From Spiroplasma endosymbiont of Antitype chi (GTDB lineage: Bacteria; Bacillota_I; Bacilli_A; Mycoplasmatales; Mycoplasmataceae), in NCBI GenBank assembly GCA_964019725.1, contig OZ026467.1, positions 1,606,794-1,638,793 of the forward strand: a DNA stretch of 32,000 nt, read 5' to 3'. The position numbers and the translations under genes were made by a program. Under the pieces are notes generated by a model that worked only from the letters and a program-made list of their open reading frames with translations, searched no databases and had not been told where the DNA came from. The stretch's first letter is position 1, and the number at the start of each line of letters is the position of its first letter. Below are positions 778 through 32,000 of the stretch, in pieces.

Positions 778-2092
778 CTAAATACTTAAATTTTGAACTT
801 TAAGAACTTCAACTAAATTATTTTTATTAATTACAATATTTTTCATTTCTTTATTATTTTTCATATTCGTTTCACTATTAGTTTTAATCATTGAAGCAGT
901 TAATAAATTATTAAAAGTTAATTTATTATAAATTTTGCCTCCTCTACCTTTAACACTTTTTGCTTTCGAAATATCACCTTCCATATGACAACCAATATTA
1001 TTAGAAAGAATTTGATTACGAATACCTTTTTCATTATTTTTAATATATTTAATTGTTTTTAATAAATAACTTCGTTTATTTCCAACAATATATGGCAAAA
1101 GAGAAATTAATAAATCTAATAATTCATCATATTTGCCATTATAAAAATAGTGTTTTGCTACATTATATTTTATTTCTTGCATTTTATTTCTTTTTCGATA
1201 TGATCATAAATGTTCAAATTTTTTAATTAAATGATACTTATCTAAACTTACATCAAGAATATTATTTTTAAATTCTTTCGCAATAGCATTAGCGATAGTT
1301 TCGATATAATTTGCACCATCACCCAAAACTAAAATCTTTGTATCTTTTTTAATATTATAACTATGCATTGCTTCAATAACTTTATTTGTAAATACCTTAA
1401 TATTAGTTAAATTTTTAATTTTATGTGGAATATTATTTATTTCGAAAACACCTTTTTTATTTTTAATTACTGGTCTTTTTTCGGTTGATTTTTCCTTATC
1501 AAACCCAGTATGTATACTAGAAATTAATATATGTTCTTTTAATTTTTCTTTGGTTTTATCATCTCGCATAGTTTGAAATGTACCATCTGCTTGAACATAT
1601 ATAGTATCTCCAGTAATATCTATTTTATTACTTTGATTAATATGAATATAGTCAATTTTATCTAAATCAACATTCTTATAAATATTTGATATTGTCATAT
1701 TGCTAACTTTTGAATCCGCAACTGTATCTATAACATCATTATATCTTTTTCCATCACCCATAAATGATAATATTTTTTCTCGTAATGAATTTTCTGTTCT
1801 TTGTCATTTTTTAATTTCCAAATATTCGTCTAACAAAAAAAACAGATACTTTTCTTTTTAAAATTTCATCAAAATAATAATATCTTCTTCGAGGAATAGT
1901 TACACGGCATCTTTTTGTTATTATAGTTTTATTTCTTTTTTCTTTTATTTTATATTTTTGATATTCTGGATTTTATTTTGTCATTTTAAACAATTCATCA
2001 TCTTTTTCAATTAATTTTTTAGTAATATCTTCAACATATTTTTTATCATTTTCTTCTTCAGCATCTTTAAAAAAATCGATATTTGTAATCAT
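778..2092 (-). pseudogene. ISLre2-like DDE transposase, disrupted
   Basis: Track ORFs 1204-1761 and 778-1182 join in-frame across TGA 1204-1206. Motifs RRRYYYFDE, LLDEYLEI, YVQADGT, LVLGDGANYI and IGCHMEG look like ISLre2/UPF0236 transposases. The N-terminal part (ATG 2090-2092, SD GGTGG near 2103) has an in-frame TAA at 1973-1975 and sits in a different frame from the body (shift near 1830-1860). Confidence 0.55.
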
Positions 2093-2173
2093 TTTAGCAT
2101 TTCCACCTTCTAATTATTATCAAATAATACTCACACACTAACTCTGCTTTAAATATTTGTCAAGGTTAGTAAT

Positions 2174-2202
2174 AAAAAAAACAAGATTAATAATAATCTT
2201 GT
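2174..2202 (-). terminator. rho-independent terminator
   Basis: 9-bp stem acaagatta/taatcttgt (2181-2189 / 2194-2202) with a 4-nt loop, followed on the minus strand by U7 (A7 at 2174-2180 on plus). Confidence 0.6.
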
Positions 2203-2447
2203 AATAGATAGGAGGTGGCAATAATTAAATATTATTAACTATCTTAATTTTTATTAAAACAAACGGCTATGGTTATCGCCGCATATGCCAAATTATATAT
2301 TCTTTTTTTCTGTCATATTACTTACTTAATCTAGCAAGGATTTTGTATATATAGGTAATACCCACTTTCGCATGACTTTATGCCAACCAGCTTCAAGAAA
2401 CTTTTTAATTCCCATTCAACAAATAGGACTACATCTTTGAATCTTGT
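2174..2447 (-). ncRNA. candidate ~270-nt transcript bounded by its own promoter and terminator (ncRNA or 29-aa peptide mRNA)
   Basis: It lies between promoter 2454-2482 and terminator 2174-2202. It is locally GC-enriched (for example ggcatatgcggcgataaccatagccg). The only ORF is 2326-2415 (MGIKKFLEAGWHKVMRKWVLPIYTKSLLD), which lacks an SD. Confidence 0.25.
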
Positions 2448-2453
2448 TTTATA

Positions 2454-2482
2454 TAGATACTGTCATTAAAATATAATATCAA
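2454..2482 (-). promoter_or_regulatory. sigma70-like promoter, copy a of a conserved module
   Basis: Minus strand: TTGATA (2477-2482), 17-nt spacer ending AATGACAG, then TATCTA (2454-2459). Confidence 0.45.
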
Positions 2483-2693
2483 ATAAAAAAGGTAGCATAA
2501 AAAAAGACAATTAACATTGTCTAAAAAAATAAATATGATATTATTAAATTAATTTAATAAATATAAGGAATGATAAACCAACTATCACTCTATAATATAA
2601 TTATAACATAATTATTATGTTTATCAATAAAAAAAATAGAAATTTAAATGGTTATAATCACTTTTTTAATTAAATTAAGGAGGTGAAAAATAC

Positions 2694-2891
2694 ATGAATA
2701 AAAATAATTAAAATAATTTAGATTTAATTTTAAAAGAAAATAAGGGATTAAAAGAAAGAATATTTTTATTAAAAGAAGAATTTAAAAAATATACAAATGA
2801 TACAAATATTATATTATCTGAACTTGAAGATATAGAAACATTAACAAATAAAGTGTGTAGATGTATGGGAAATAGAATAAATAGGAGTTAA
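2694..2891 (+). pseudogene. small coiled-coil ORF interrupted at codon 6
   Basis: Strong SD AAGGAGGTG at 2678-2686 and ATG at 2694. In-frame TAA at 2709-2711, after which the frame stays open for 59 more codons to TAA 2889-2891. Confidence 0.4.
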
Positions 2892-2946
2892 AAAAATAAT
2901 ATTAATTGCTTGTTAGTATTTTATTTTATAAATAAAAATAGTTTAA

Positions 2947-3117
2947 TTAAACTATTTTTTTACTTATTTCCAAAAATTCAATAGCATCATCAATATTATT
3001 AACTGTTATAGAAATTGATATTGATTATTTAACCTTATTATAATTTTTTTCAACATTAAAATAACCTTTATCGTTTGAGTCATTGATTTTTTTTATTTTT
3101 AAATCATTAATTTTCAT
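2947..3117 (-). pseudogene. small ORF interrupted by in-frame TAA
   Basis: SD AAAGGAG and ATG 3115-3117. TAA at 3025-3027, then 25 more open codons to TAA 2947-2949. A hairpin plus U-run follows. Confidence 0.4.
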
Positions 3118-3150
3118 ATATTTACTCCTTTCGCTTTAATTTACATGACA

Positions 3151-3934: not shown

Positions 3935-4549
3935 TTAATTTTTTTTATTTTCTTTTTCTCTATTTTTAAGTTCAAAATATGAATCAATAAATTCAATTAA
4001 CGCTATTATTGGATCTTCTAATTTTTTACAAATCTTATTAATTTCATTAATTCTGGTTTTACTTAAAGAACTAAAATCAATTTCTTGTTTTAAAAATATT
4101 TCTTCTTTCTTTATATCTTGAAATTAATTAACTGTATCAACTAATTTTTTATTTTCTTCTTTTGTATCTTCAAAATCAAGTTTATCAATTATTTCAGAAA
4201 ACCCCAACGCTTTAATTGCCAATTTGTAACTTTTTTTATAAAGTTCTAAATATTTCTCTACTTTTTTATTTAAATCACTAGTATTTATTTTATTTAATGG
4301 TTTATTTTCAAAACTTTGATAATTTTTAACCATTTTTTCATGTTGTTTTTTAAACATTCTCTCTAAACTTTTTAAATTTGCTTTTCTATCCTATTCAATA
4401 TATTTTATATTTTCTGATTTTTCCATTTCTTTTAATGCTTGTTCTGCCATTCCTTTAAATTCACATTTTCTACAAAAGAAAAATTCATTATAACCAGTCA
4501 TATCTTTTTGTAAATCTTTCTTTTTATACATCTCACAAATTTTATACAT
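3935..4549 (-). pseudogene. hypothetical 204-codon ORF with two in-frame stops
   Basis: ATG 4547-4549. A single frame runs to TAA 3935-3937, interrupted only by TAG 4391-4393 and TAA 4124-4126. It contains track ORF 4124-4357. Confidence 0.5.
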
Positions 4550-4617: not shown

Positions 4618-4646
4618 TTGAATATATATATATATATATATATAAT
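4618..4646 (+). promoter_or_regulatory. promoter whose 17-nt spacer is a TA dinucleotide repeat
   Basis: TTGAAT (4618-4623), 17 nt of alternating AT, then TATAAT (4641-4646). It lies 39 nt upstream of the lipoprotein ATG. Confidence 0.5.
4622..4644. repeat. (AT)11.5 microsatellite
   Basis: 23 nt of strictly alternating A/T. Confidence 0.9.
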
Positions 4647-4684
4647 GTGACAGTATTCAAAAAAACAGAAGTGGGGCATATAAA

Positions 4685-5176
4685 ATGAAGAAATTACTAA
4701 GTATAATAGGAACAATTAGTTTAATTACTGGCGGAAGTAGCAATTTAATTGCATGTAATAATAATCAATTAACATCAGAAAAATTAACAGAATTAAAAGA
4801 GAAAAACAACAAAACTATAAATGGTAATAAATTAGAATGAATGGCACCACAAGAAAAACCATTTAATGCACTTGACGATAAATGATATGTAGTAATATGG
4901 CGTGGTAAGGAAAATCTTGAATGAAAAATTTTTAAGTTAAAAAATGATGAAAAAATAAGGCTTAAAAATGGCTTTAAATTAGTTCTTGATTATTATGGTA
5001 AAGTTGATGATCCTAATAAAATAAATTTAGTTTTTGATGCTGAAATCAATAATTTAAGAGCAAATGACCAAATTTGAACTAATAATAGTATTAATTTTAA
5101 ATCGGTTTATCGTTGAGATGGAAATTCTGAATCAAACACACCCAAAATTGATAATAATGGAAATATTATAGATTAA
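4685..5176 (+). CDS. surface lipoprotein (163 aa)
   Basis: MKKLLSIIGTISLITGGSSNLIAC is a signal peptide plus lipobox Cys. Open in code 4 (several TGA=W) to TAA 5174-5176. A diverged paralogue lies at 30791-31289. Confidence 0.85.
4853..5121. repeat. left arm of a perfect 269-bp inverted repeat
   Basis: Base-by-base reverse complement of 5373-5647, apart from a 6-bp tandem duplication in the right arm. Confidence 0.95.
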
Positions 5177-5314: not shown

Positions 5315-6442
5315 TTATTTGATTAGTTCAAAAAAATAAATAGTTTTTCCTTTTATATTTGGATTTTTTACACCATCTCAACGTCAACGATAAACCGATT
5401 TAAAATTAATACTATTATTAGTTCAAATTTGGTCATTTGCTCTTAAATTATTGATTTCAGCATCAAAAACTAAATTTATTTTATTAGGATCATCAACTTT
5501 ACCATAATAATCAAGAACTAATTTAAAGCCATTTTTAAGCCTTATTTTTTCATCATTTTTTAACTTAAAAATTTTTCATTCAAGATTTTCCTTACCACGC
5601 CATATTACTACATATCATTTATCGTCAAGTGCATTAAATGGTTTTTCATTTGGATAAACTTTTGTAAAATGTTCTATTTGATAAATACCGCTATTTTTAA
5701 TATATATTTCAAGTTCATTTAATTCTTGTGTTTTTCTATATTCTAAATTTGTTAAATAATTTTTAATATTTTTTAGTTGGTTTTGTTTTTCTTGTAATAG
5801 TTCTTTTTCTTCTTGTATTTTTTGGGTGATTATTAATAATTTTGATGGGTTATGAGTTGATTCCATTAAAAGTGGTAATAAATATGTACTTTCATCTTTG
5901 ATATTTTCAATAGTTTCAAGATCATAAATATCTTTTTTAAATTTTGCTTTAAAACTTATTAATGGAAATTCATAAATACCGTCATTTGGTTTTTGGTTTA
6001 AATTATCTTGGATTAATTTCGAAACAGTGTTAATTATTTTTATTTCGATGGGATTGCCAAATTCTTTTAATTCACCATTAATTATTTTTGCTTCTTTACT
6101 TAAATCCACTCTAATTACCATATAATAATTTTCATTATTTGCTACATAATCTTTATCTACAAGTAATTTGGTATTTTTTTCTAATTTAATAATACGACCA
6201 CAAACACTTAAATATAATTGCGAATTAAAAGTAAATTCAACACATCTATCTGTTATTTTATATGTATATTTTAATTTTTCACTTTCATTTTTGATTAAAA
6301 AACCTGTTGAATTTTTATATATAGTTTCACTATTAGGTAAAAGTTTTTTTGTTTGTTGTTTTAATAATAAATCGTATAATATTGCTTGGTCTTTCGCTAA
6401 AACAATATTGCCGTTATCAAATGTTATTTTTCTAATTCCCAT
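5315..6442 (-). CDS. tail fibre / receptor-binding protein 2 (375 aa) with a lipoprotein-derived C-terminal domain
   Basis: Track ORF 5615-6442 continues across TGAs to TAA 5315-5317. The N-terminal ~270 aa are paralogous to 7010-7630 (GRxxxxExNT, GIYExxLIS). The C-terminal ~90 aa are encoded by the inverted repeat. Confidence 0.75.
5373..5647. repeat. right arm of the inverted repeat
   Basis: Reverse complement of 4853-5121, with tcaacg duplicated in tandem at 5378-5389. Confidence 0.95.
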
Positions 6443-7010: not shown

Positions 7011-7630
7011 TAAACATTAAATCTCCTTTTAATATTAATAATTTCATTATTTATTCGTGTTTCTAAATCTTTTGCTTTTTGATCAGTATTATTAATTTCA
7101 TTGTTTATTTTTTCATATTCTTGTTTAATGTTTTTAATTTCAGTTATATTTTTAGTTAATTGATTAATTTCAATGTAATTTAATAATTCTTTAATATTTG
7201 TAATATTATTTGATGTTGCTTGATAACTAATTAATGCTATTTCATAAATGCCATTTTCTTTATTGATTAGATTGTCATTTTGTAAATTTGGACTTGATCC
7301 GTTATTGTATTTAATTTCTAAATTAACTGGATCAGATTGTCCTAAATTAACTTTTATTATTACATATCCTTAATAAGTTTCATTTGGATTACTGGGTTGA
7401 ATTAATTCTATTTCTGTATTTTCTTCAATTTCTAATAATCTGCCATAAATTAAAATATAGTTTTGATTAAAAGTTATTTTGTTATTATTTTGCGTATAAA
7501 GTACTTTTTCATTGTTTTTAATAATCCCCGCTTTATTTTCTGTGTTATTTGATAAAAAATAATTTTGTATGTTTGCGTCATCTACGGATTCAATATTATG
7601 ATTATTAAATGTTTTTCCTACGACTGCCAA
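7010..7630 (-). pseudogene. tail fibre paralogue 1, interrupted by one TAA
   Basis: SD GAGGTG and TTG start at 7628-7630. In-frame TAA at 7370-7372. The same frame then stays open for 119 more codons to TAA 7010-7012, checked codon by codon. Confidence 0.6.
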
Positions 7631-7658
7631 TTTTATTCACCTCATTTGGTCGTGTGTC

Positions 7659-7687
7659 ATCATACCGTCATTAATTAAAATTGTCTA
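7659..7687 (-). promoter_or_regulatory. sigma70-like promoter, copy c
   Basis: Minus strand: TAGACA (7682-7687), 17 nt ending AATGACGG, then TATGAT (7659-7664). Confidence 0.5.
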
Positions 7688-7693
7688 TTAAAA

Positions 7694-9202
7694 TTAAATA
7701 TTTTTTGTTTTTAACATATCAATAAAATTAATTCTTGCTTTGCCAAATAATAAATGAATAGTGTTTTTGTTATTTTCATATTGAATTGCAGATAATATTG
7801 TTTCATATTATTTGTTATTAAAATATAAAATAAATTTATCACCTAATTTTATTTTGTTTAAATCTAAAATATTTGTATTTTTACTAATATCAAATTCTAT
7901 TGAATGTGAATATTTGCTTTGTTGTAATTCTTGTTTAGCATAATCAAATATATTAATTTTTTTATCTAATTTAGCAGTTTTATTTATAATTGGTAAAATT
8001 CTGTTTTTAATATCATTTTTATTTTTAATATTTTCAATATATTTTTTAACATCCGCTAAATTTTTTAATTCTATTTGTAGTTCTGTTATAAATTTTTTTA
8101 ATTCTAAAAATTCATTTCAATTTAAAATGCTATATTTTGCTATTTCATTTCAAGTATTTTCATTATTTGGAACAGAAAATAAAAATTGTCTCATTAGTTG
8201 TGGTTTTAAATCTTTTAAAATTTCTTTATCTGTTTCACTAATACCAGTATCTCTATAACCTGTTTCTTCTTTAACATAAAAATTTCATAAATTATTTTCT
8301 TTTTTTAATTTAAAACCATCACCTCATTTTAACTTTGTTCCAATCGGAAAATTTTTAATTAATTCTAGTGTAATTTTTTCTTTTTCAAAGGTAAATTTTA
8401 TTTCTTTTGAAATTTTATTTCAAATATTTAAAATATTATTTCAATTTTCCAATGTTTTATTATTAATAATTTCATTATTTTTAAGTAAATACCAACTTTC
8501 TTTAAAGTTATTATTTTCATCATAAATATCTAATTTATTAATTAATTGTTTATAAAAGTCATCTATTTTCAAATTATAAATATTATTAATGTTATCTTTT
8601 AAATAATAATTTTCGTTATTTGGTGAATTAAAAGTTATATTAATTTTTTTATTTTTTATGTCTAATTCAAAAGATACATAATTTTTTGTTTGGTCATAAG
8701 CGATTTTATAAAAATCAAATAAACTTATTTCTATTTCATTTTTATTAAAAAAAGTAAACTTGGTTGTTGCTGTTTTATCAATTAATTTTAAGTTATTTTC
8801 TAAAAAATCGTTTAAAAAATTATCTTGATTAAAATAATCTTTTATTTTTTCTTTAATTAATACAGCCATGTCACGGTCAACTATATTTTTAACTAATATT
8901 TTAAAATCAAATATTCCAATTATTGATTTACAACTAACTATGCAAGATTTATTTTCTTTAATATTTTCGATATTTGTTATTATTCCTAAATATATTTTTT
9001 GATTAATATCATTATTTATATAAACATAATCACCAATAACAGCGTTTATATTATTTTTACTTAATGTAAATTTTGAAACTTGTAAAACATAAATATCTTC
9101 ATAAATATTATACTTTTCAACAATACTATTATCTTTAAAGTTTAAATTAATTTATGAAAAAATATTAATATTAAGATAATTAGACTGATAAATATTCTTC
9201 AT
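7694..9202 (-). pseudogene. large tail/baseplate protein (Tal-like position), two in-frame TAA
   Basis: ATG 9200-9202. One frame of 502 codons runs to TAA 7694-7696, checked codon by codon. The only interruptions are TAA 9152-9154 and TAA 7808-7810. Contains track ORF 8441-8869. Confidence 0.6.
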
Positions 9203-10079
9203 AGTATTTTATTTCTAAACTCCCCGCTAATTTTGATTTTGGTAAATCATTAAAGTATTTAATTTTATATTCTCCTATTGGTATTGTAAAGAATGTATTT
9301 AAATTAAAATATTGTTTTTCGTAAATATTAATTTCTTGTTTAACTTTATTGTTTTTATCTTTAATAACTTTTATAATTTTTTGATTTTCGATAGTTGTAT
9401 TAATAATAATTGCTTCGTTTTTCTTGATTGTTTCATAAATTTTACATTCGCTAATTTCTTTATTATCTTTAAGAAGTTTTATATGTGGATTTATTGATTC
9501 ACCATTTATGATTATTTCGCCTTTTGCTGGTAAATCACTATTATTTTTTATTTTCTTTGTTTGATCATAAATACTTGTGTATTTAAATGCTCCAAATTTA
9601 TAATTATATTTTTTTCCGACACTTGTATCAATAATTAATTCTCACTCAATTTGAATTTCTTTTTTTCAATTAGAAACTTGTTCTAAAATAAAATCAATTT
9701 CTAAATTATTGAATTGGTTTAATTCATTTTTACCAATATTTTTAATATATACATCACAATAATATTCATTATAGTTATTATTATATGTAACACCATAAAT
9801 TAATTTTAATGATTCAGAGTTAGCAAGTTCCTATTTTATTTTTTCAATAAAATCACGATATTTTTGATATGCGTTAGGGTTTATAAACAATAATTTTAAG
9901 GATAATTCATTTAATACTTTTTTATTTGATTCTAAAATAAAGTTATTTTTAACATTTAAAAAAGAATTATTAAAACCAACGCCAAGATTATTAAAAGAAA
10001 TGGTTAATATATCACTAGTATTTTGTAAGTCAATAATTTCATTATTACTTGTTTTTAATTTAAATGTTCTAACTATCAT
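9180..10079 (-). pseudogene. distal tail protein (Dit-like), one in-frame TAG
   Basis: Track ORF 9831-10079 ends at TAG 9831-9833. The same frame continues for 216 codons to TAA 9180-9182. The position directly after the tape measure fits Dit. Confidence 0.55.
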
Positions 10080-10085: not shown

Positions 10086-11994
10086 TTAACTCCTATTTAT
10101 TTTATTTCCCATTTGTGTAAGAATTTGATTTGTTGCTTCTTCAATATCCATATTATTTGAAATATTAAAATTATTATTAAATGTATTACTATTATTTATA
10201 TTTTTTGTATTAAGAGTTGATTGTTGTAATGCTGGTTTTTGAATTTCTGGTAATGATGGGATTTGAACATTTACTAATCCAAATGTTAAATATTTTAGCC
10301 CTGTTAATACTTTATTTATTAGTCATATAATACTATTTAAAATTTTAATTAAAAAATTAAATGGAGGTATTAAAAAAGTTATAATTGCTTTTCCAATCTT
10401 AGCAAAATAGATGCTAATCCATTAAATAATGTAAAAATTGGTTTTAAAATTGGCATTAATGCTTGAAATAAATTTTTAAGTAATTCAATAACTGGAATTA
10501 ATAATTGTTTACAAATATTCCCTAATTATTTTAATAATTCTTTAAATTCTTCATTTTGGGCTAATAAAGGTACTAATAAAGCACCAATAATACTTATTCC
10601 TATTCTCCGGATTGCACCCATTGAAGATGGTAACCCCAAAAAAGCTGTTTTTAATAAATTGATGGTGTTTATTAATAAACCTCCAATAGATATTAATTTT
10701 CCGAATATTAATACAGTGGGTGCCATAACTGTTAATATACCTAAAATTTTAAATATTAATTCTTTTTGGCTAACACTTAATGAATTAAAAGTATCAGTTA
10801 TTTTTTTAATTGAAGGTATTAAATCACTATCAATAAAATTAACAAACTTTTCAAAAATAGGGAATAAACCTATTGCTAATTCCATTTTTATTATTGATAG
10901 TTTTTGTGTTAATTCATTTCATTTATTACTTAATTCTGTCATTTTTTTAATATTTTCATTTGAAATTAATGTTAAATTTTCAAAATTATTAGTTAGATTT
11001 TTTATTTCCTAATTACTTTTTAATAATAACGGGGCAATTTTACTACCTAATTCATAACCAAAAATTTTAAAATAAAGTTACTTTTTTCTGTTTTATTTGT
11101 TATTTTAGATAGTGCATTTTTTGTTTCTAAAAAAATAGTTTCAGTATTTTTTAATTCCCCACTAGTATTTTTAATATTAATTCCTAATTGTTGAAATGCA
11201 TCAGTACTTTCATTGAAAATGCCTTGTGACAATTCATAGTTTGTTTTATTTAGTTTTTGAAATAAAATTTCAATATTTTCAGTTTCTAAACCAATCTTTT
11301 TAGCAATAAATCTAAATTTTTGTAAATTATCAGTTGAAATATTAATTTTTTGTGCTGTTTTATTTAATTCTTCACCAAATAAAATCGTATCTTTTGTTAT
11401 TTTTCCTAAAATAGCCTTAATACCAATTAACGGTATTGTAATATAAGCACTTAATTTTTTACCTATATCTGATAATTTGTTTCCAAATTTAATAAATTTA
11501 TCGCCACTTATTTTAGATAGTTGTTTGTTAGTTTCTTTTAAGTCGCTATTAAACTTAATTATATTACGATCAATTCTATCAATAGTTAAATTTGTAAATT
11601 CATTTTCCCTTGGTATTGCATTAAATTTCTTTTGTAATTGAGATAATTCAACATTTAATTTTTTAATTTGTTTTTCATCTGTTCCATTTTTAATTGCTAT
11701 TTCAGTTTTTTTAATTTGATTTAAATATTCTTTTTGATTTTTTTGTAATTCATTTATTTTATTAATTAATTGCTGTTTTTGTTTTAGGGTATTTTCAATA
11801 TTTTTGTTATATTCAACAATTTTATTTCTTAAATTATCAAGTTCTTTGCCATTTTTAAATTTTAAATTAGCATAAAGATTAGCAAGTTTTCGATTTGAAA
11901 GATTAACAGTATCGGCTAATTTTTTGACTTCTGTATTTATATTTGATAAATTTGTACTAATTTCAAGATGAATTCCTTTGATTTGTTCTGCCAT
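10086..11994 (-). pseudogene. tail tape measure protein, multiply disrupted
   Basis: ATG 11992-11994 lies behind SD GGAGG. The N-terminal part is coiled-coil, followed by hydrophobic helical repeats (track ORF 10526-10885). Lesions: frame change near 11050-11090, TAG 11009-11011, TAA 10526-10528, and a frame change near 10400-10420. Confidence 0.7.
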
Positions 11995-12000: not shown

Positions 12001-12524
12001 TTAACCTCCAAAAAATATTTTATTTATTTTTTCTTGTGTTGGTTTTTTAGAAAAATTATTAACATCTTGATATCTTTCTGAATGTAAAGCGATAATATTT
12101 AAAAATTATTTTAAGGTAAATAATTTTAAATCACTAACTAAATAACCACATTCTTTAATTAAACAAATAAAAGTATGAGTTCAATTTTTATTTAAATTTT
12201 GATTAACTACTTTTTTTCATTAATATTATTATTTGAAATAAATACCTCTGCTATTAAATTATTTAATTTTGTTACAAATGCTTCATTCATAATTTCTGAT
12301 AATGGGATACTTTGGAAAAATTATTTATAATCTAAATTATTATCATAATTATATGCAAAAGAAAACAACATATCTAGTAATTGTTTATATGAAAATTTTT
12401 CATTCTTCATTTTTTCAAAATCAGTAATTAAATCACTACCAGTTAATTGTTCATAAATTATTAAAAAATAAGCACTTGTATTAATATTTATATCAACATT
12501 CCCAACTTTAATTTTTTTGTTCAT
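12001..12524 (-). pseudogene. tail assembly chaperone G/GT pair (with in-frame TAA lesions)
   Basis: It lies between the major tail and tape measure genes. The G frame runs 12524 to TAG 12207-12209, with TAA at 12321-12323. The -1 frame continues to TAA 12001-12003, with TAA at 12106-12108. Confidence 0.55.
12210..12216 (-). promoter_or_regulatory. -1 programmed ribosomal frameshift slippery heptamer A_AAA_AAG
   Basis: Minus strand reads GAA AAA AAG TAG. A -1 slip gives AAA AAA GTA GTT and opens the T extension. Confidence 0.6.
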
Positions 12525-13447: not shown

Positions 13448-13826
13448 TTAATTTCTTGTATTAATTAAATAAACTTCATATATTGTTATATAAATTTTTT
13501 CACTATTTAAATAATAATTTTGTATTTTTTTGAAAATGATTTTATTATTTTCTAATATTTGTTCTAATTCTTCTTCTAATAAAAAATTTATTTCTTGTGT
13601 AAAAATTGATATTTGAATTACTTGTTTTTTCACATATGAAATATTATCTGCGTATAAAATACTTTGATCAGTAATATCATATTATGTAATGTAATTTGAT
13701 AAATTATTATCATCTATTTTACTCAAATTATAAAAAATAGGTATTTTTAAATAATTTTTAGAAATTAACCCGTTTATTAATTTTAAATTTTTTGTATTGA
13801 GTAATTCATTTAATTTTAAACCCCAT
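13448..13826 (-). pseudogene. tail-completion/terminator-position protein, disrupted
   Basis: ATG 13824-13826 is in a different frame from the body. In-frame TAA at 13682-13684. Contains track ORF 13448-13633. Confidence 0.45.
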
Positions 13827-14849: not shown

Positions 14850-16715
14850 TTACTCTCTTACTACATTAACAAATGATCATTTTGCGACAGTATTTCCATC
14901 GGCAATGAATGTTGCTTTGTATGCGATTAAATCTTGATCAAAAAAGAAGTCTGTTTATTTAGTAATGTTTAATTGTTTTTGAAAGTTTCATTTATATTGA
15001 CTTAAATCCCCAAATGTTATAAATGTTGATTTTTCTGTTTCTGAATATTCTGGATATTCATCACATAAAATAACATCATAACCAAAAATATTGTATTTTA
15101 ATGTTTCATCACTTTTTGTGTGGTTTCAAATTGGTCTATCATTTTTATCTTTAATTGCTTGAATTTGTGTAAAGAAAGTAGATTTATTCATAATAAACTT
15201 AGCATTATTATGATAACCAGTTGGAAGTAAAGAAATAATTTTTTGAATTGTATCATAAGAAATATTTTTTTCAGTTTGTGCTAATTTATGTTTAAGAATA
15301 TTAGTATTAGTAATTATTCCTTGTGGTTCAAGTTTTGCAGATCCTTGTCCTTTTGCAATAGCATATTCAATAGCATTTTGTACTTCTATTGCTAAACTAT
15401 CAATAATAAACTTTTCAAAATTATCTATTGTAATTGCTTCTGCACTTTCTGAAATAGTTATCATTGTTCCTCATCTATATCCATTTAATTGGATTGATTT
15501 AAAATCAAGTTTTCCAGTTAATTTTTCACCTTCTTTGCTTCATTTTCCGCCAACATTCTCATCTTTTTTAATAGCAAATTTTAAAAAACCATCAATATTT
15601 GAAACTGATACATTTCTAATTAAATCAGATGTACCTTGTAATTTTGCAATAATACTTTCTCATATTGTTGTTGGTACCAATGGTGAAGCATCTTGGTTTC
15701 CGTTTGAATTTGTTCCGATTTGTAAAAACTTAGTTTCTTGATTTGTTAATTTTTTGTGTTGTAATTTTTTTAATCAAGCATTTTTATATTCTTTTGATTT
15801 TAGAACATCGTCAGTATTTTGTAAAATACTTTTATTTTCATAATTATTATAATTATAAAAGTTTTCAATATTCCGAGATTTTTCTGGTTGTTCTGTTTGA
15901 TTATCTTCAATAACTTCCTGTTCAATTTCATTTTTAATCATTTCTAAACGATTAAATTCTGTTGTAATTTCATTAATTTCTTTAACAAGTTCTTTAACTT
16001 TTTTTACATCTTCATCGGATACATCTGCTTTTGTTTCAATATTTTTTTTTAAAAAGTTTAATTCTTCTTTTTTTATTAGTTTTTGATTTCTTAATTCTTT
16101 TAATTTATCATTTAAATTTTTTGTCATTTTGTTATTTTCATCTCCTTGCAAAATTTCTTCTATTTCTAGATTTAATATTTCTTTTTGTAAAATATTAAAA
16201 TTATTAGTATTTTTACTTTTAATTTCTTGCACCTCACTTTTTGGGTTTGCACCTAATGGAACTAATGAGACCTCATTTACTTCAACTTGTTTTAAGTATC
16301 TAACAATATTTCCTTTAATTTCCTTATCTTCTGTTTCTATTGTTGTATATCCTATGCTTAATTGCATCGGTCTATTGCTTTTTTGCATTTGTTTTGAAAT
16401 TTCATATACTTCTTTTCCAACCGTAATATTTGTATTAATTTGCATTTTAGCTCATAATCCATCTTTTTTGCTTTCTAAGTATGCGATTCCAATTGGATTT
16501 TTATGTTCATGACCCCATAATAATGGAACTGCTGGTGTATTTTTTATAGTTTCAATAAAACTATTTTCATCAGTAATGTCACCATGATAATCAACAACAT
16601 TATATTTATTAGCAATTCCGATTATTTCTTTAATGCCATCGTCATTTGTTTGTATAATATTTTTTACTTTAAAATTAATTTTTTTATTAATCTCGTTATT
16701 AATTGTTTTGTTCAC
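14850..16715 (-). pseudogene. fused prohead protease - coiled-coil scaffold - HK97-type major capsid protein (621 codons), one TAA 35 codons before the end
   Basis: Track ORFs 16452-16715, 15774-16445 and 15126-15464 are all in one frame, joined only by TGA codons (checked codon by codon). In-frame TAA at 14955-14957. The frame continues to TAA 14850-14852. Confidence 0.75.
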
Positions 16716-18002: not shown

Positions 18003-19704
18003 TTAATCATTAAAATTTTTCCCGATATCTGTTTGATAAATTTTAAAATGTTGTTCATTATTTATATACATTTTATAAGCAAATAATAGTGCCATAAAAC
18101 CATCAATTCTTTTGCGTGAACTTTTTTTAATTGGCATAATATTTTCTTTACTATCTGTTATAAGTTTTGTGTTATCTAAATTTCATTTAAAAATAGGGTG
18201 ATTATTATAAATAATTTTATCATCATAAAATAATGGAGCAATCGATTTTATTAATGGTGATATTGTATATATACCATTTGTGACAATTTCTGTTCTATTA
18301 GAAAAACTGTTTTGTTCTAATTTTTCTTTTATATAATCTGCATAATATCTATCATATCCAATTTTTACACAAATTAAATTATATTTTTTAATAGTTTCAA
18401 TAATATAATCAATTATTTCATCTCTATTTACAGCGGATCCAAGTGTAAAAGTTATGTATCCTTGTTTTTCTCAAACAGAATATAAAACTTTGTCTTCTTT
18501 TTCATTTTCATATGCTCTTTCTCGGGGAATAAAAAAATGTGGCAAAATAAAAAACTCACCAGTTTTTTCGGGTATTAAAATTACAACAGCAGTTAAGTCC
18601 ATTGTTTGTGATAAATCAATACCAACAGTACAGTATTTATTTTTTAAATAATCTTCTAAATTAACATTTTTATTATTTTTTTCTTGTAAATATCCAAAAT
18701 TAAATAATGAAGTTTCTTGCAGAGAAGCAATATTACAATGACGAGTTAAAAAACTAGGTTGTTGTAATGGCTGGTTAATTGCTGTTTCTCATTCTTCTTT
18801 TAACTTTTCAATATTTTTAGAAATACCAAGATTTGGATTTGCTTTATATATATTTTTAAATTTTTTTCATTCATTAAAATTATCTAATTCATATATTCAA
18901 GGTAAAAAATTATCGTTTTGATAAATATTATTTAATACTTTTTCATCATATTCATATCTCTCATCATAAATGCTCTCACGAGTACTTCCACTTGTTGTAA
19001 TTAAAAGCATTAATGTATTTTTTCTTTTTGATGTTGCTGATTTAATAACATCATATAAGTCTCTTTTTTTCATAGCCACCAATTCATCTAAAATTACTAT
19101 ATATGGATTTAAACCATCTAATGTTTTATCTTCTGATGCTAATGGTTGAAAATGTGATCAATCTCTTAAAAATTCTATTTTATCCCTTGTTATTTTTAAT
19201 TTACTATTTAATCATTCTTCCTGTCTAATCATACTTTTAACTTCATCAAAAATAATTTTTGCTTGTTCTTTTTTTTGTTGCAACTGTATATATACTTGCC
19301 CCTTTTTCGTTATCTAATAACAAACATTTTAAAACAATAGCAGATGCTAGGGTTGATTTACCATTCCCTCTACCAACAACCAATAATGCTTCTTTAAATC
19401 TGCGAATATTAGTTTATTTTTCGTAAAAACCAAATAATGCTTCTATAAATGCTTTTTGTCATAATTCTAATTTAAAATTTTGTCCTGCATATTCACCAGT
19501 TGAAAGATGACAAAATCTTTCTATAAAAATTATTGCACCACTTGCTTGTTTTTTATTAAAATAAAACCTTTTACTATTTTTTAATTCATTAACTAAATTA
19601 GATACTATCTTTTTAATTTTCAAACAAACAATATCTTCGTTTTTTTTAATTCACTCATTATATAATTCTAAATTAGTTTTATTATTTATCGTTTTTTCAA
19701 TCAT
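18003..19704 (-). pseudogene. terL: terminase large subunit, one TAA plus one homopolymer frameshift
   Basis: Walker A VVGRGNGKST, ILDE, and a nuclease half containing track ORF 18897-19082. ATG 19702-19704. In-frame TAA at 19414-19416. The frame changes at T8 19269-19276. Stop TAA 18003-18005. Both frames were checked codon by codon. Confidence 0.85.
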
Positions 19705-19713: not shown

Positions 19714-20149
19714 TTATTCTAATTGTATAATTTCATCTAATAGATTATTGTTTGTTTGTAATATAAACGATACTTCAATTTTTTCATTACTTTCTTTTAT
19801 TCATTTTTCAATAATTATATAGTGACTTTTATAATTTTTTAACATTGCATTATATTCTGGCAAAATTGGATTTTTTTCTTGTCTTTTATTCCCGCGAATA
19901 TTTTCAACATCAATATAATAATTATCTAATTGACGAATTTTTTTATCCATATCATAAATTAATCATTCAATTTTACAAAATGTTTTAAGGAAATTAATTT
20001 TTGACTTATCTAAATCAACATTATTATTAATTAATATTTTTTTTATAATCTTTAAAAAGATTATTTATTTCTTTTTCACCTTTTAAATTTAGTTCATTTT
20101 CGTTTAAAATTGCTTTATTTTTATTCATTTTTGGGTTATTTTTATTCAT
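19714..20149 (-). pseudogene. terS: terminase small subunit (P27-like), frameshifted in an A8 tract
   Basis: It lies directly upstream of terL. ATG 20147-20149, with a second ATG at 20126-20128. The frame changes at T8 20037-20044. Stop TAA 19714-19716. Confidence 0.5.
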
Positions 20150-20383: not shown

Positions 20384-20412
20384 ATAATACCGCAGATTAA
20401 ATTTTTTGTCGA
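20384..20412 (-). promoter_or_regulatory. sigma70-like promoter, copy e (late operon)
   Basis: Minus strand: TCGACA (20407-20412), 17 nt ending ATCTGCGG, then TATTAT (20384-20389). Confidence 0.45.
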
Positions 20413-20440
20413 ATTAAATAATTAAAAATTATATATTTTT

Positions 20441-21831
20441 TTAATCAACTAAATGATAAAACAAAATTGCTAATTGAAAGTTTTTTTGATTATCTTGCTC
20501 AAATGAAAAATCATAAATAATATCATAATCATTTAACAATTTATATTTTTTTATAAATTGTGGATGTTCAATTATTATAGAATTAATTTTTTCTATAATT
20601 GATGATATATTTTTATCTTTTACAAAAATAATCAATGCTGATTTTGTATCTCTTCATGTTAAATAACTTTGCAATTGATTAATAGCAGAAAATAATTGTT
20701 TTTTTTCCATGTCAAATTTTACATTCAGCTATAAATATATTTTCATTATTATATTTTAGTAATATATCTGTTTTTCCATTTCTATTAAATGCTTCAGCCA
20801 TTACAGATACTTTAAAATTTAAAGAAAGTATTAATAAAATATAATCTCTAATTGTTTCTTCATTTTTATTACGATAAATATTTGGGTATTCTTCCATTCT
20901 TTTTCCAAACTCATAAATTACACTTAATATTTATAAATAAATATCTTCAGAAATTATTGGATCTAAATTAAAGTCATTTTTAATTTCTGGTAATTTAATT
21001 GATATTTTTTCTTTTTTCTTTATTAGAGATACTGAAAATGTATTATTATCTTTATCTTCTATTTTTCTTAATGGAACAATTAAATTTTTTAAAGAATTTG
21101 TTATTGTTTTTTCTTTTTCTTTTTTGTTATTAAAAATATTTTTAATATAAGGTTTTAAATTATTATTGTATGAATCAACTTCTTTTTTTATATTGTCTAT
21201 ATAATATTTTAAATAATATTTTATTTTATTAATTTTATCATTAGAATAATTTGCATTATTTTCTTTTCATTCAACAACGAAAGAAATTTCATTATTACTT
21301 ATTTGAATTTCATATTTTGAACTTGTTTGAGAACTAGGATATGTTTTAAATAATTCTGAATCACCTTCATATGGTATACTAATTTTTACCATTGTCGCAA
21401 TATATTCATGTGTACTTGAATTTGAAATTACATTAAACGGAATAGGAATTATTTTTTTCTCTTTGTAATCTTGTGAAGATCAATTATTAAAAAATAAATT
21501 AATTGGTTCTATTTCATATCTTTTAAATAAATATTCAATAATATTATTTTCATCAACATTTAAAATATAATTATCTTCGTAATTATTAATTTCATTTCTA
21601 ATATTTTCATATAAATTATTAAAAAGATCATGTAAAAATATATTTTTAAATGGTATTATTTTATTTTTTCCCCTCAAATTTATCAATTATATTATATAAC
21701 ATTTGCTCAGTTTCCTTAGAAAAATTGCCTTTTATATGTAATTTACATATTATGTTTTTTAAATTATCAAAATCAGAATTAATTATATACTCCATTATTT
21801 TATCTGACATTTGTATATTTATTTTTTTCAT
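20441..21831 (-). pseudogene. ~460-codon protein with a C-terminal PD-(D/E)xK (RecB/Cas4/Shedu-like) nuclease domain, disrupted
   Basis: SD AGGAG and ATG 21829-21831. Track ORFs 21480-21686, 20712-20897 and 20441-20635 belong to it. Motif GKTDILL-x9-IAECKIW followed by QLQSY. Lesions: frame change at T6 21664-21669, TAA 20931-20933, and a frame change at T9 20698-20706. Confidence 0.55.
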
Positions 21832-21886
21832 TTTATTTTTCTCCTATATTTTTTTAACAATTATATTAATTCCTAAATTGTTTTTT

Positions 21887-22354
21887 TTATTTTTTATCAT
21901 ATTTGTTGTATCCTAAATAAAAACCATTATCTCAATAATTAGGATTATCAATATTTTCTAAATCTTTTAGTAATTGTTTTAATTCTTCTGATGTTAATTT
22001 TCTTTGCTGAATTTTAGTATTTTCATAATGACTATTATATTCATTTAGTAAATCACTATTATCATCATTTTTGTTTTGCGAATTAAACTGCTTTTTGTTT
22101 TCTTGTTTTAATTTTTCAAAAGATAAAATTAAATTTTTTCCCACAATATTACCATTTTTATTATCGATAATACTATGAACCATATATTTTTTATTTTCAT
22201 CAATTTTTAAACTAAAATAATTTTTATAACTTGATAAACCTAAGTAATTTTTATTTCAAACAACACAATCTTTTTTCTTATTTATTAAGATATAAATCAT
22301 ATTATTTTTTTCTTGCGAAATTAAATTTTGATTTAGATAAATTTTTTTTATCAT
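21887..22354 (-). CDS. hypothetical protein, 155 aa, intact
   Basis: SD GTGAGG and ATG 22352-22354. Open in code 4 to TAA 21887-21889 (checked). Contains track ORF 21932-22183. Confidence 0.65.
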
Positions 22355-22541
22355 ATTTAATTACCTCACTTTATTTTTTTATATTTTTAGCATTTATAAA
22401 ATTTATTAAGCGTTAATAATTCTGAATTTGAAATTGCAAACTCTTGCTTATATCTAATACAATCAATAATTATTTTTCCATTAAACTTTGTTTTAAGTTT
22501 TGAATAATTTTTTTTTATTATAATAATTACCTTTCTTTTTT

Positions 22542-22793
22542 CTAATATTTTATATTTGACAAATTATTATTTTTTTCTTCTTTACTTGGTAATTAACTAT
22601 CTTTTTTAAGATTATTTTTATTTCAATTTCATATTTTTGAAATTTTATTTTCTAATTCATGGGTAATTAATCAATGTTCTTCACATAATATTATTTATTT
22701 TTTATAGTTTAAATTTAATGCTAATTTGCCATTATCATTAATTATAAAAGATTTGCGAGAATAACCATTATTTTTACAAACATTACAAATCAT
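22542..22793 (-). pseudogene. small zinc-ribbon protein, two in-frame TAA
   Basis: ATG 22791-22793 (TAATG overlap). MICNVCKNNG start. TAA at 22695-22697 and 22593-22595. Stop TAG 22542-22544. Confidence 0.45.
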
Positions 22794-23667: not shown

Positions 23668-23892
23668 TTAAATTTCCTCCAATTTTTTTTCCATAATTAA
23701 AGTATCAATATATTCATAAGCATTTTCTTCTGAATGACATTCTTCTAATGCTTCATTAAATAAGTCTTCATCTGTATAAACTTTGCATTATTCATCTTTT
23801 CACATATTATTCACATCCTTTTTACAAAATAAACAATAATCAGAATTAATTTGATTAACAGCACACTGACACTTTTTACAATATTTTGCCAT
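23668..23892 (-). pseudogene. small zinc-ribbon protein, one in-frame TAA
   Basis: ATG 23890-23892. CKKC...CLFC motif. TAA at 23788-23790. The frame continues to TAA 23668-23670. Confidence 0.45.
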
Positions 23893-25828: not shown

Positions 25829-26651
25829 TTAAATCTCCTCTTTAAAATTTGCACTATTTTTAAAAAATAGTGCTTTTGCATCTTGTCATTCTAAATTTAA
25901 TTTAGTTGTTATTTTAAAATTAATTCTTTCAATTCCATTTTCATTTATAATTTAAATTTCGCCTTTATCAGCAACATTAATACCATTGGCTTTTAATAAA
26001 TGTGCATATCCCGTAATTTGTAATTGTGCCATTTTAATTTTTTTAAGTTCAACATTTTTTCAAGTTTTAAAATCAACAACAATAGCATTATTATTTTCCA
26101 TATAAACCAAATCGGGTGTACCACAAATTAATCCATCTGAAATTGGTTGTTCTATTATTGCTATAATTTTTTTAAATTCTTTTTCAATTTTTTTAATAAA
26201 ATTATTAAACTTTTTTATTAATGGAAATAATTCTTTAATTTCATTATATTCAACATTTAATAATTCTAATATTTGATTGATATTGTTTCGTGAGTTTTCA
26301 TTTTTAACACAATCGTATAATATTCTTGATGCAAATTCATGAATAATATTTCCCCTAATTATTGCTTTATTAAAATATGCAGAACCTTTAATATCAGAAT
26401 AATTTGTATTAAAATAATTAGGTCGCATGTAAAAAATAAGGGTTTTTATTTTTAAATGTTATTTAGTTTAATATAAATTAAGGATATTTTTTTATTGTTT
26501 TTATAAAACCCTTATTTTTTACATGCGACCAATAATTATTAACTATGAGTGTAACACTTGGCAAAAATTTATTATTAAATTTATATCTATGTTCATCTTT
26601 TCAAAATTAAGCTTCATATTTTAAATTAATATTTTTATCAATAAATTTCAT
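25829..26651 (-). pseudogene. Cas4/RecB-like PD-(D/E)xK exonuclease, split by a MITE and two TAA
   Basis: ATG 26649-26651. N-terminal motif HRYKFNNKFLPSVT. GTPDLVY...VVDFKT is a D...DxK motif (track ORF 26060-26428). TAA at 26607-26609 and 25952-25954. A 110-bp insertion occupies 26421-26530. Stop TAA 25829-25831. Confidence 0.65.
26421..26530. mobile_element. 110-bp MITE-like element with 26-bp perfect terminal inverted repeats and an 8-bp target-site duplication
   Basis: TIRs ggtcgcatgtaaaaaataagggtttt (26421-26446) and its reverse complement (26505-26530). It is flanked by aataatta at 26413-26420 and 26531-26538. In-silico excision restores ...SVTLIVNNYFNTNYSDIKG... in frame. Confidence 0.8.
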
Positions 26652-27964: not shown

Positions 27965-27968
27965 TTTT

Positions 27969-29670: not shown

Positions 29671-29859
29671 TTAAGAAGCAAGAATTATACGGGCAAATAT
29701 TTTTTCTTGGTCTTCAATATTATCAAAAGTAGCTAATATATTTTCATCTTTTGTTTTTAAATCAATAAGTTTAATCAAAAAATTATCTTTTTCAGATATT
29801 TTTTTAATTTCAAAATTATTATCTATAAATAAAGATGAATTTCCTTTATTAAAAATCAT
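29671..29859 (-). CDS. hypothetical protein, 62 aa
   Basis: Intact track ORF with SD AAAGGGGTG upstream. Confidence 0.6.
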   Translation of the reverse strand: MIFNKGNSSLFIDNNFEIKKISEKDNFLIKLIDLKTKDENILATFDNIEDQEKIFARIILAS

Positions 29860-30140
29860 TTTTTCACCCCTTTGATTAAATTAATAAAGAAGTAAAAAAC
29901 ATCATTCATTCTTACTTGAAATAATTATTTATTTATATATAATATAAAGCAAGAATGATGTCGGGTCATTCTCTTTTTTATTTAATTAAATTAATAATAT
30001 CATACTATTTTACCAATACAATACTTTATGGTATACAAAAAAAACTAAACTTAATAATTTTGTTGCTAATTTAGACCTTAAAAAGCATAATAGGGGCTAT
30101 TTAACAATATAAAATTTATAAATAATTTCTAATTTTGCTT

Positions 30141-30153
30141 ATATATATATATA
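30141..30153. repeat. (AT)6.5 microsatellite upstream of the secreted-protein gene
   Basis: An alternating AT run between TTGCTT (30135-30140) and TATAAT (30150-30155). Confidence 0.85.
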
Positions 30154-30208
30154 ATCAAAGTAAATCTTGATAAAAAGTTTCAAGATTAAGAAAAGAAGAA
30201 AAACAAGT

Positions 30209-30703
30209 ATGAAAAAAATACTAAGTTTATTAAGTGTATTAATAATTGGTGGAACTTCTGTACCAACAAAAATTTCCGCTAGTCCTTATCAAAAAGAAGA
30301 AATTAAATTAGAAAAAATTGAAATTAATTCACAAAAAAATAATTTAGGAAATTTAAATAGAATTAAAAGACAACAAAGAAAAATTAATATTTCATTAACA
30401 AATAATTGAAATAGGAGTTTAGGTACTATTTTTTATGATGATGAAAGTAATATTAGTTATGGTTTTGTTGTTAACAACCTTCACAATATAAATAATTTAA
30501 GTCAACAACAACAATTTGATTTTAATAATTATATGGGGATTGGAAATATAAATCGAAGAGCATGAATGGCTACTATATATTTTTTACCAAATAATTCTTT
30601 TGAGGGTACATTAACTGTTATGTGGAATAGATCCGGTCTTGGAACTAACTCATTAACATTAACGGGGCCCGATTATTATAGTGATGGACATATTGATTTA
30701 TAA
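30209..30703 (+). CDS. secreted protein with signal peptide (164 aa)
   Basis: ATG 30209. MKKILSLLSVLIIGGTSVPTKISA signal peptide, with no lipobox Cys. Open in code 4 to TAA 30701-30703. It extends track ORF 30167-30409. Confidence 0.7.
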
Positions 30704-30721
30704 TAATTTTAATAATTATTT

Positions 30722-30756
30722 ATGGAAATAAATTTTATTTTTATTTCCATTTTTTA
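30722..30756 (+). terminator. rho-independent terminator
   Basis: 11-bp stem atggaaataaa/tttatttccat (30722-30732 / 30740-30750) followed by a T-run. Confidence 0.7.
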
Positions 30757-30790
30757 TTAAATTAAAAAAATATATGAGATGAGTTAAATA

Positions 30791-31289
30791 ATGAAAAAAA
30801 ATATTAAGTCTTTTGGGAACAATCACTTTAATAGGAGCAAGTACAACAAGTTTAGTTGCTTGTAATACATCGCAAGAATATACAAAAGAAAAATTATTAC
30901 AATTAAAATCAAAAAACAATATAATAACAAAAGGTGGTATTTTAGAATGAATATCAACGCAAGAAACACCATTTAATAAAGTTGATAATAAATGATATTT
31001 TGTAATATGAAAAGGTAAAAATAAATATCATTTAAACAAATTTAAAAATATTGCGCACAAAGATGAACTAATATTTAATGATGGTACTAACCACCTTTAT
31101 TTAAGATTAGACGTTGATTTTAATTTGTTATATGTATATGAAACTTATCAAGGAAAAGAAACTAAGTTATATTATTGAAAAAATAAAAATGATGATTATA
31201 TTAAATCTGTTTATAATTGAAATGGTAAAGAACAAAATTTACCTGACTTAATTGTTGATAATGATGGTAATGTAAAAGTTAACGGATAA
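30791..31289 (+). pseudogene. lipoprotein paralogue, out of frame at an A8 tract directly after the ATG (phase-OFF or pseudogene)
   Basis: ATG 30791 is followed by A8 at 30794-30801. With A7 the ORF reads MKKILSLLGTITLIGASTTSLVAC... to TAA 31287-31289. The total length of 499 nt is 3n+1. It shares the LEW..PFN..D.KWY.VIW.GK and SVY.W.G motifs with 4685-5176. Confidence 0.7.
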
Positions 31290-31405
31290 TAAAAAAAGAT
31301 ATACTAAATCTCTTTTTATTTTTTATCTTGGTTTCATTGTAATTTTAACAGGGTTATTGCTGCTATTTATAATCCTCAAAACATTTGGATTATTTATATT
31401 AAATT

Positions 31406-32000
31406 TTATACTTCCCCGTATGAAATAGGTGTTTCATATTCGGTTGTACCTCAATATCGAATATCTCCATATCCCTCAACTCCTAATAATTTGGGAATTA
31501 TACTTTTTGATATTATAATTTTTAATTTCATATTATTAGTATAATATACCTGAAGTTTAGTTTCTTTAATTTTATCGTTATCATTATTATATAATTTTGT
31601 TATTTGCAATAATAAATAAATAAACGCTTCACCTAACTTAGTTTTATATTTAGTTCTATATTCTTTATTTATTAATCCATTAGTATAATCAGCAGCAACT
31701 GTTTGAATATAATTTACTCTTATATTATCAGTATATAAAGTTATTTTATTATTAAAATTAACTTTATCAACTTGTTACATTCCTTGTGTCTATATTTTTA
31801 CACAATCCAAATTACCTAAATAATCTGAACACCCCGTTATACCAAATAAAATTTCAACATTTCTATTAGGAATAAAATTTTCTATATTTAGTGGTTCACA
31901 TTCAACTTGTAAATTACTTAGATTACTTATTTCAATTGTTTTATAATAACTAATAAATTTATCTATACTTTGAATGATTGGGTCAATTTGTTTTAAGTCA
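31406..32000 (-). pseudogene. 3' part of an unknown ORF (continues beyond the window) with adjacent in-frame TAG and TAA
   Basis: A single frame is open (code 4) from 32000 to TAA 31406-31408, except for TAG 31790-31792 and TAA 31775-31777. Confidence 0.45.

Follow-up and report, generated by a model that had tools for sequence, protein, structure and literature searches.

Recent neutral decay of a prophage as the probable origin of scattered in-frame TAA and TAG codons in a Spiroplasma endosymbiont

The Spiroplasma symbionts of Drosophila show GC>AT-biased substitutions that are enriched in prophage loci, universally lack mutS and mutL, and carry prophage regions that are degraded or pseudogenised (PMC8208695), and elsewhere in the genus genomes have been enlarged by numerous prophage regions and contain hundreds of pseudogenes (PMC13375240). 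Here, a stretch of 32,000 nucleotides from the Spiroplasma endosymbiont of Antitype chi (contig OZ026467.1, forward-strand positions 1,606,794 to 1,638,793; hereafter the window, in whose own numbering all positions are given) was analysed, in which a prophage is interrupted by about two dozen in-frame TAA and TAG codons. The case is like that of S. poulsonii sHy vs. sMel (PMC8208695) with regard to the host, of the same genus or a close relative, to the GC>AT bias and to the degraded prophages; that study concerned strains of the Citri and Poulsonii clades and gave no description of the present prophage family, whereas here the decay could be resolved codon by codon against sister copies in other insect hosts. 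With cryptic (defective) prophages in general the window shares a recognisable phage gene order and the presence of inactivating point mutations and frameshifts in essential genes, but its decay is very recent, with frames still open and with one copy that is 98.9% identical and intact over 4.8 kb, and the nonsense share of its lesions is unusually large because of the extreme AT bias and genetic code 4. Our reading, to which we assign a probability of about 0.93, is that the window represents the recent neutral decay of a dead prophage under AT-biased mutation and not recoding or readthrough. As such, it is a clear and well-resolved example of an already known process.

Two further kinds of described system offer a comparison. 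Phages with recoded stops (TAG or TGA) are known, in which the recoded codon is frequent, absent from true gene ends and aligned with one amino acid. The window resembles them in having in-frame stops in phage structural genes, but it shows none of these three features, all of which were tested. In Buchnera and Blochmannia, frameshifts in the poly(A) tracts of AT-rich endosymbiont genes are reportedly rescued in part by transcriptional slippage. Three frameshifts of the window likewise lie in A8 runs, although slippage would be unable to rescue the nonsense codons present in the same window genes.

The window has about 20% GC and a T-rich plus strand, and nearly all of its long open reading frames (ORFs) lie on the minus strand with TGA read as tryptophan (code 4); in coding frames TGA is used 88 times vs. 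12 for TGG, and in-frame TGA occurs inside conserved genes. With TGA translated as W, PHROG matches were obtained for TerL, the portal, a fusion of a head-maturation protease with a major head protein of HK97 type, the major tail protein, the tape measure, Dit (distal tail protein) and Tal (tail-associated protein), whereas Pfam matches were obtained for RecT, HNH, an N6/N4 DNA methylase (N6_N4_Mtase), a UPF0236-family transposase at the left edge and, weakly, a PD-(D/E)XK nuclease. Morphogenesis and replication genes stand in a phage-like order, recognisable as terminase, portal, protease-capsid, connectors, major tail, chaperone, tape measure, Dit, Tal and fibres. Because of these matches, and because the relatives found through TerL all reside in Spiroplasma endosymbionts of insects, the window can be identified from its sequence as a tailed-phage prophage of about 30 kb, with an HK97-type head and a long non-contractile tail, in a Spiroplasma-type insect endosymbiont. 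Comparison of window positions 14000-20000 with GenBank phages by blastn gave no match.

A TerL-based scan of one genome per species yielded five related loci with 90-97% DNA identity to the window, from the symbionts of Polydrusus pterygomalis (L001), Lasioglossum calceatum (L002), Seladonia tumulorum (L003) and Polydrusus formosus (L004 and L005), the last two aligning to window positions 586-2279, 7180-8306, 13010-14161 and 16338-22386. Another copy, L008, is a Logan contig of 4784 bases (SRR21069255) that aligned to window 13084-17866, the portal-to-connector module, with 98.9% identity and zero indels. Every gene call in L008 is intact, and another sample therefore harbours a functional or very recently functional phage of the same family. 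The sole relative returned by a TerL scan of IMG/VR (L006) was 25% identical and was left unused. Pairwise alignments provided a homologous codon for 16 sites, to which L008 and a protein alignment added the one at 14955, also confirming that at 13682.

All 24 TAA and TAG codons listed in the initial annotation of the window are present in it, 23 on the minus strand and that at 2709 on the plus strand. As TAA and TAG make up 10.5% of the codons when the minus strand is read in its non-coding frames, long open runs on both sides of a stop are improbable by chance, and those around most of the stops far exceed this expectation (104 open codons upstream and 119 downstream at 7370, 84 and 216 at 9831, 251 and 83 at 20931, 53 and 88 at 4391, 97 and 58 at 19414). 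Thus, such open runs are very unlikely by chance, as the annotation had maintained, and its description of frames that stay open past the stops is right for most sites but weak at 2709, 3025, 22593, 31775 and 31790. Single PHROG matches also cross the stops in TerL (residues 31-557), the protease-capsid fusion (83-619), Dit (1-204) and Tal (11-500). Of the listed codons, about 20 out of 24 truly interrupt formerly continuous genes, and a further premature stop, the TAA at 19714, was absent from that list.

When the interrupted ORFs were aligned with their homologues, sense codons were found in the relatives (90-99% nucleotide identity) at 14 of the 17 covered sites, the per-site tally being five GAA/GAG (Glu), two CAA (Gln), three TAC/TAT (Tyr), one TCA (Ser), one TGA (Trp) and one AAT/GAT. 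Therefore, the in-frame stops, among which both TAA and TAG are found, replace Glu, Gln, Tyr, Ser, Trp and Asn/Asp, plus Lys at 22593 as judged from paralogues, with no consistent amino acid among them. A single G/C-to-A/T step explains all the resolved changes except TAT-to-TAG at 9831 and the change at 23788.

Among the packaging and head genes (minus strand, as are all sites described from here on unless otherwise stated), the TAA at 19414..19416 falls in TerL between the N-terminal region and Walker A (GRGNGKS), within the span of a phrog_9 match, and the TAA at 19714..19716 falls in the gene upstream of TerL, two codons before its end; both are GAA in L001, L002, L003 and L005. The TAA at 20931..20933, in the 21686-20441 gene, is CAA (Gln) in L005. 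Thirty-four codons before the end of the protease-major capsid fusion, the TAA at 14955..14957 corresponds to TCA in L008 and to Ser in the proteins P0001 and P0003, the latter the S. citri capsid. The TAA at 13682..13684, in a head-tail joining gene at about 13809-13448, is TAC (Tyr) in L008 and L005, the L008 gene being an intact call of 120 amino acids.

In the tail genes, the tape measure carries a TAG at 11009..11011 and a TAA at 10526..10528, which are GAG (Glu) and GAA (Glu), respectively, in L002, with the L002 ORF unbroken at the first of them. The TAG at 9831..9833 in Dit is TAT (Tyr) in L002 and is spanned by a phrog_13564 match; the TAA at 9152..9154, codon 17 of Tal, is CAA (Gln) in L002; and the TAA at 7370..7372, in the fibre-like gene 7663-7010, is TAC (Tyr) in L005. 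Tal contains a second TAA at 7808..7810, 37 codons before its end, which is TAA in L005 too, and the phrog_7064 match there reaches profile position 363 of 365.

Farther along, a small Cys-rich gene carries a TAA at 22695..22697, which is GAA (Glu) in L002, and another in its tail at 22593..22595, with 16 open codons downstream, which is TAA in L002 too. The sequences bear out the earlier remark that the latter aligns with Lys in the KLPSK tails of two neighbouring paralogues. The TAA at 23788..23790, again in a small Cys-rich gene, is AAT in L005 and GAT in L002, in copies merely 73-76% identical. In the PD-(D/E)XK exonuclease, the TAA at 25952..25954 is TGA (Trp in code 4) in L002, in a region spanned by weak Pfam PDDEXK_1/Cas4 matches, and the TAA at 26607..26609 in the N-terminal part of the gene is GAA (Glu) in L002, with frame changes flanking it near 26659 and 26478.

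The genes that the annotation had called intact (portal, major tail, RecT, methyltransferase, membrane protein, HNH and 22354-21887) are indeed all open, although the portal carries five derived amino-acid changes. Its two other generalisations did not withstand inspection. Regarding an excess of nonsense changes over indels, frameshifts are present in TerL, the TerS-like gene, the 21686-20441 gene, the tape measure, the exonuclease and the transposase. Nor does the pattern of one stop per gene hold, as at least two are present in each of the tape measure, Tal, the G/GT chaperone, ORF 4549-3506 and ORF 31999-31406; a single stop without an indel is found in the capsid, Dit and 13809-13448 genes.

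Three of the window frameshifts are in A8 runs, at 19269, 20037 and 20700. By three-frame translation, the first (19269..19276, T8 on the plus strand) shifts the frame of TerL, L001 and L005 having one base fewer and the frame kept. The TerL frameshift at 19269-19276 is common to the window and to L002 and L003, the Lasioglossum and Seladonia symbionts, and is absent from L001 and L005, so that it is either older than the split of these three copies or the product of repeated slippage. The second run (20037..20044), with one base more than in L002, L003 and L005, splits the TerS-like gene 20149-19714, whose frame shifts between 20149-20027 and 20064-19714. For the third (20700..20707), in the 21686-20441 gene, frame 0 reads ...IWHGKK and frame 1 continues as KKQLFSAINQ... 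across the run, an ORF continuity from which we infer a frameshift. The tape measure shows two 1-base deletions, each with one A missing compared to L002, one at 11060..11072 (near 11068), where L002 reads continuously ...NNFIFKIFGYELDSK..., and the other at 10398..10408 (near 10403), where L002 reads ...GLASIFAKIGKAIITF.... From the ORF frames, further frame changes occur in the exonuclease, near 26659 and 26478, and in the UPF0236 transposase, near 1857. Overall, about 445 mismatches and 32 gap events separate the window from L002, and the length of 25 of these gaps is not divisible by three. Inactivating lesions are thus found in genes essential for the particle, with a stop plus a frameshift in TerL, a stop in the capsid, two stops plus two frameshifts in the tape measure and stops in Dit and Tal.

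The frame change in the tail assembly chaperone appears to be of another kind. At 12207-12219 the chaperone ends with ...GAA AAA AAG TAG, in which an A_AAA_AAG heptamer adjoins the stop, and the -1 frame runs on as KKVVNQNLNKNW... toward the tape measure. This heptamer is a classic -1 slippery site, and the frame change looks like a conserved programmed G/GT frameshift rather than a lesion.

The lesions differ between related copies. When stops in the relatives were counted over aligned codons in the window coding frames, L002 had six stops of its own, compared with six in the window over the same 4274 codons by the automated count and nine when stops outside the coding pieces were included; L001 had one, L003 two, L004 nine in 722 codons and L005 58 in 2734 codons. 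L005 also shows 38 frameshifting indels relative to the window over 6 kb. TerL is broken in all the copies examined, differently in each, and the L002 tape measure is unbroken where that of the window is broken and broken where it is unbroken, with frameshifts of its own. The window and L002 have kept 13 gene-end stops in common, showing that TAA is the normal terminator.

Some of the copies carry alterations that deserve separate mention. At about 13701-14135 of L002, the capsid gene runs directly into the start of the tape measure (...ENVGGK-NLMAEQIKG...) as the result of a deletion that matches window 12011-15543. The L004 copy of the transposase, 88% identical to window 778-2092, has seven stops of its own; therefore, mobile elements outside the phage core decay likewise. 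L005 and L004, both from the Polydrusus formosus symbiont, are very heavily decayed, and about 60-75% of their new stops are GAA-to-TAA changes. A sense meaning of TAA as Glu in these two copies was considered and rejected, as TCT-to-TAT changes are equally elevated, there are dozens of frameshifts, and TAA ends their genes.

The window and L008 show 50 differences, 27 of which could be polarised by outgroups, with an excess of window-derived (22) over L008-derived (5) changes. The window-derived set comprises 14 missense codons, one nonsense and four synonymous; the stop at 14955 is a second nonsense difference from L008, which is not polarised by outgroups and was called as obviously derived. 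When the mutation spectrum of the window itself was applied to the ancestral codons, the neutral expectation was 0.74 missense, 0.19 synonymous and 0.07 nonsense. Thus, the missense:synonymous ratio of the window lineage is indistinguishable from neutral, as under relaxed selection. Window-specific substitutions amount to about 0.9% per site (43 in 4858 polarised sites), for which full neutrality over about 25.7 kb of coding sequence predicts about 16 new stops; the count observed, approximately 24, is of the same order.

Regarding the spectrum, G/C-to-A/T changes are about ten times as frequent per site as A/T-to-G/C changes. In L005 and L004, G-to-T changes in AGA context reach 0.19-0.21 per site, compared to about 0.10 overall, and the complementary C-to-A changes in TCT context are higher still (0.33-0.50 per site); as both are elevated, the signature is strand-symmetric and mutational. 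GAA accounts for 7.4% of codons and about one-fifth of the coding-strand G, and AAA, which is 11.9% of codons, precedes 11 of the 23 minus-strand stops. Both the dominance of GAA-to-TAA and the AAA before these 11 stops follow from the AGA-context hot spot for G-to-T. AAA before stops was also considered as a slippery or recoding signal and rejected, as the AGA hot spot and the common Lys-Glu dipeptide account for it.

Several observations weigh against neutral decay as the whole explanation, or limit the support for it. The stops at 7808 (with L005) and 22593 (with L002) are common to a relative and could hint at conservation, although common ancestry accounts for them just as well, and at 7808 (AAA TAA TAT in the window) a repeated change at a hot AGA site would serve equally if the codon there had once been GAA, about 19% of the G's in AGA context having become T in L005. 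Among the covered sites, these are just two out of 17. The counts for single branches are small (27 polarised codon changes, 22 polarised single-base differences). The pairwise missense:synonymous ratios, 238:127 with L002 and 47:44 with L001, are below the neutral ratio, meaning that part of the divergence arose under selection and that the inactivation is recent, not old. Finally, nine sites (1973, 2709, 3025, 4124, 4391, 12106, 12321, 31775 and 31790) are without an informative relative. A protein search with a concatenated query (ORFs 4549-3506, the chaperone G and T parts, 31999-31406, 23892-23668 and 2092-1811) gave no match at E<=0.001, leaving those at 1973, 4124, 4391, 12106, 12321, 31775 and 31790 unpolarised.

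Sequencing or assembly errors, that is, consensus artefacts in AT-rich, homopolymer-rich DNA, are highly unlikely to have produced this pattern. Although the three frameshifts in 8-base homopolymers lie in a classic error context, most lesions are substitutions outside homopolymers, the same type of lesion is found at other positions in independent assemblies from other hosts, and the A8 run of TerL is identical in three independent assemblies. Moreover, the substitution spectrum is coherent, strand-symmetric and biological, and the window lineage has an excess of missense changes too, not just of stops.

Programmed readthrough or suppression, in which a suppressor tRNA or leaky termination would decode the stops with some efficiency and thereby add a layer of regulation to phage gene expression, had been left open in the initial annotation. 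The frames that remain open beyond the stops, the capsid, Dit and 13809-13448 genes with one stop and no indel, and the two stops common to a relative would all fit such a system, but we regard it as extremely improbable, and the two arguments on which the annotation had based it, few indels and one stop per gene, are factually wrong. The residues replaced are unrelated, TAA and TAG are both involved, sense codons occupy 14 of the 17 covered sites in relatives and no lesion is present in the 98.9%-identical copy. Frameshifts accompany the stops in TerL and the tape measure, the window lineage evolves neutrally, and TAA ends nearly all genes, with 13 gene-end stops conserved with L002. ARAGORN, run on the window and seven related loci only (L001-L005, L007 and L008), found no tRNA in any of them, and hence no suppressor tRNA, and a search of Rfam at gathering thresholds gave no match. 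Unrelated residues and the absence of a suppressor tRNA, here from the window and these seven loci, were the sequence-based findings that the annotation had named as refuting readthrough. A narrower version concerns some of the youngest lesions, the capsid (14955), Dit (9831) and head-tail (13682) stops, where leaky termination might give some full-length protein in a partly functional element; we see only a very slight chance of both being the case. If true, the element would be partly functional, e.g. as a domesticated particle or a toxin-delivery module, but the sequence evidence argues against it.

A reassignment of TAA and/or TAG to sense in the phage or host code has a practically negligible probability. 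A sense meaning has already been given to TGA in the host lineage, but TAA is the terminator of nearly every gene in the window and its relatives, in-frame stops are about 0.3% of codons, five or more amino acids are replaced and near-identical copies lack the stops. The conserved gene-end role of TAA and the variety of residues replaced already refute such a reassignment.

Neutral decay of a dead prophage was also the reading that the annotation had preferred, as a recently inactivated cryptic prophage under AT-biased point mutation, and the diverse ancestral codons, the lineage-specific lesions and the neutral missense:synonymous ratio agree with it. The process may be pictured as follows. 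Once phage production ceased, selection on the phage genes would be lost and ordinary mutations would pile up at the neutral rate. A spectrum biased from G/C to A/T would then meet a coding strand rich in GAA, CAA, TCA, TAC and TGA, all one step from a stop, for which reason about 7% of random substitutions would create TAA or TAG. Slippage in A7/A8 runs would contribute the frameshifts, and the frames past the stops would still be open only because of the young age of the lesions, the old frame having had no time to fill with further stops. The proteins would be truncated and non-functional, and the prophage presumably not inducible.

The stops not yet described lie in the chaperone and towards the ends of the window. 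The G part of the tail assembly chaperone carries a TAA at 12321..12323, with 77 open codons upstream and 37 downstream, and its -1 frame extension (T part) another at 12106..12108, with 37 upstream and 34 downstream. ORF 4549-3506, for which no homologue was found by PHROG or by protein search, contains a TAG at 4391..4393 and a TAA at 4124..4126, the latter with 88 open codons upstream and 62 downstream. The UPF0236-family transposase gene 2092-778 carries a TAA at 1973..1975, where L004 has an indel, and residues 22-360 of its merged product are covered by the Pfam UPF0236 match. At the other edge, the TAG at 31790 and the TAA at 31775 (31775..31792) stand four codons apart in ORF 31999-31406, with 69 open codons upstream and 122 downstream; this ORF had no homologue in the protein search and no Pfam match. 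Two further sites are also weak cases. The TAA at 3025..3027 may be a natural gene end (36 open codons upstream, 25 downstream, P about 0.06), and the TAA at 2709..2711, on the plus strand, has just 10 open codons upstream, the downstream ORF ending in a fragment that resembles the C-terminus of the tape measure.

This plus-strand ORF after 2709 ends with ...MGNRINRS, compared to ...MGNKINRS at the C-terminus of the tape measure, and a 63-nucleotide inverted repeat (I2) pairs window 2829-2891 (plus strand) with 10086-10148 at 76% complementarity. The repeat and the resemblance of the two ends suggest that the left end of the window may hold a fragment of a second, oppositely oriented prophage copy. 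A longer inverted repeat, of 290 nucleotides, joins window 4847-5136 and 5364-5653, its arms being 96% complementary and 227 nucleotides apart. The C-terminal part of the fibre-like protein (6442-5315, minus strand) is encoded in one arm, and that of a lipoprotein encoded convergently on the plus strand (4646-5176, lipobox LIAC) in the other; the extreme C-termini of these proteins could be exchanged if the arms underwent inversion or gene conversion. Further lipoprotein genes are found on the plus strand at 30164-30703 and 30792-31289.

For the recoding question the outcome is a negative one: scattered single in-frame TAA or TAG codons followed by long open frames are the expected signature of recent neutral decay in very AT-rich genomes that use code 4, since about 7% of random substitutions make stops. 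For the phage family, the window provides a dated snapshot, in which sister copies 95-99% identical, from different insect hosts, carry different lesions; therefore, the family spread recently and was inactivated quickly after integration. The G:C-to-T:A signature in AGA/TCT context may help studies of mutation and of the loss of DNA repair in Spiroplasma symbionts.

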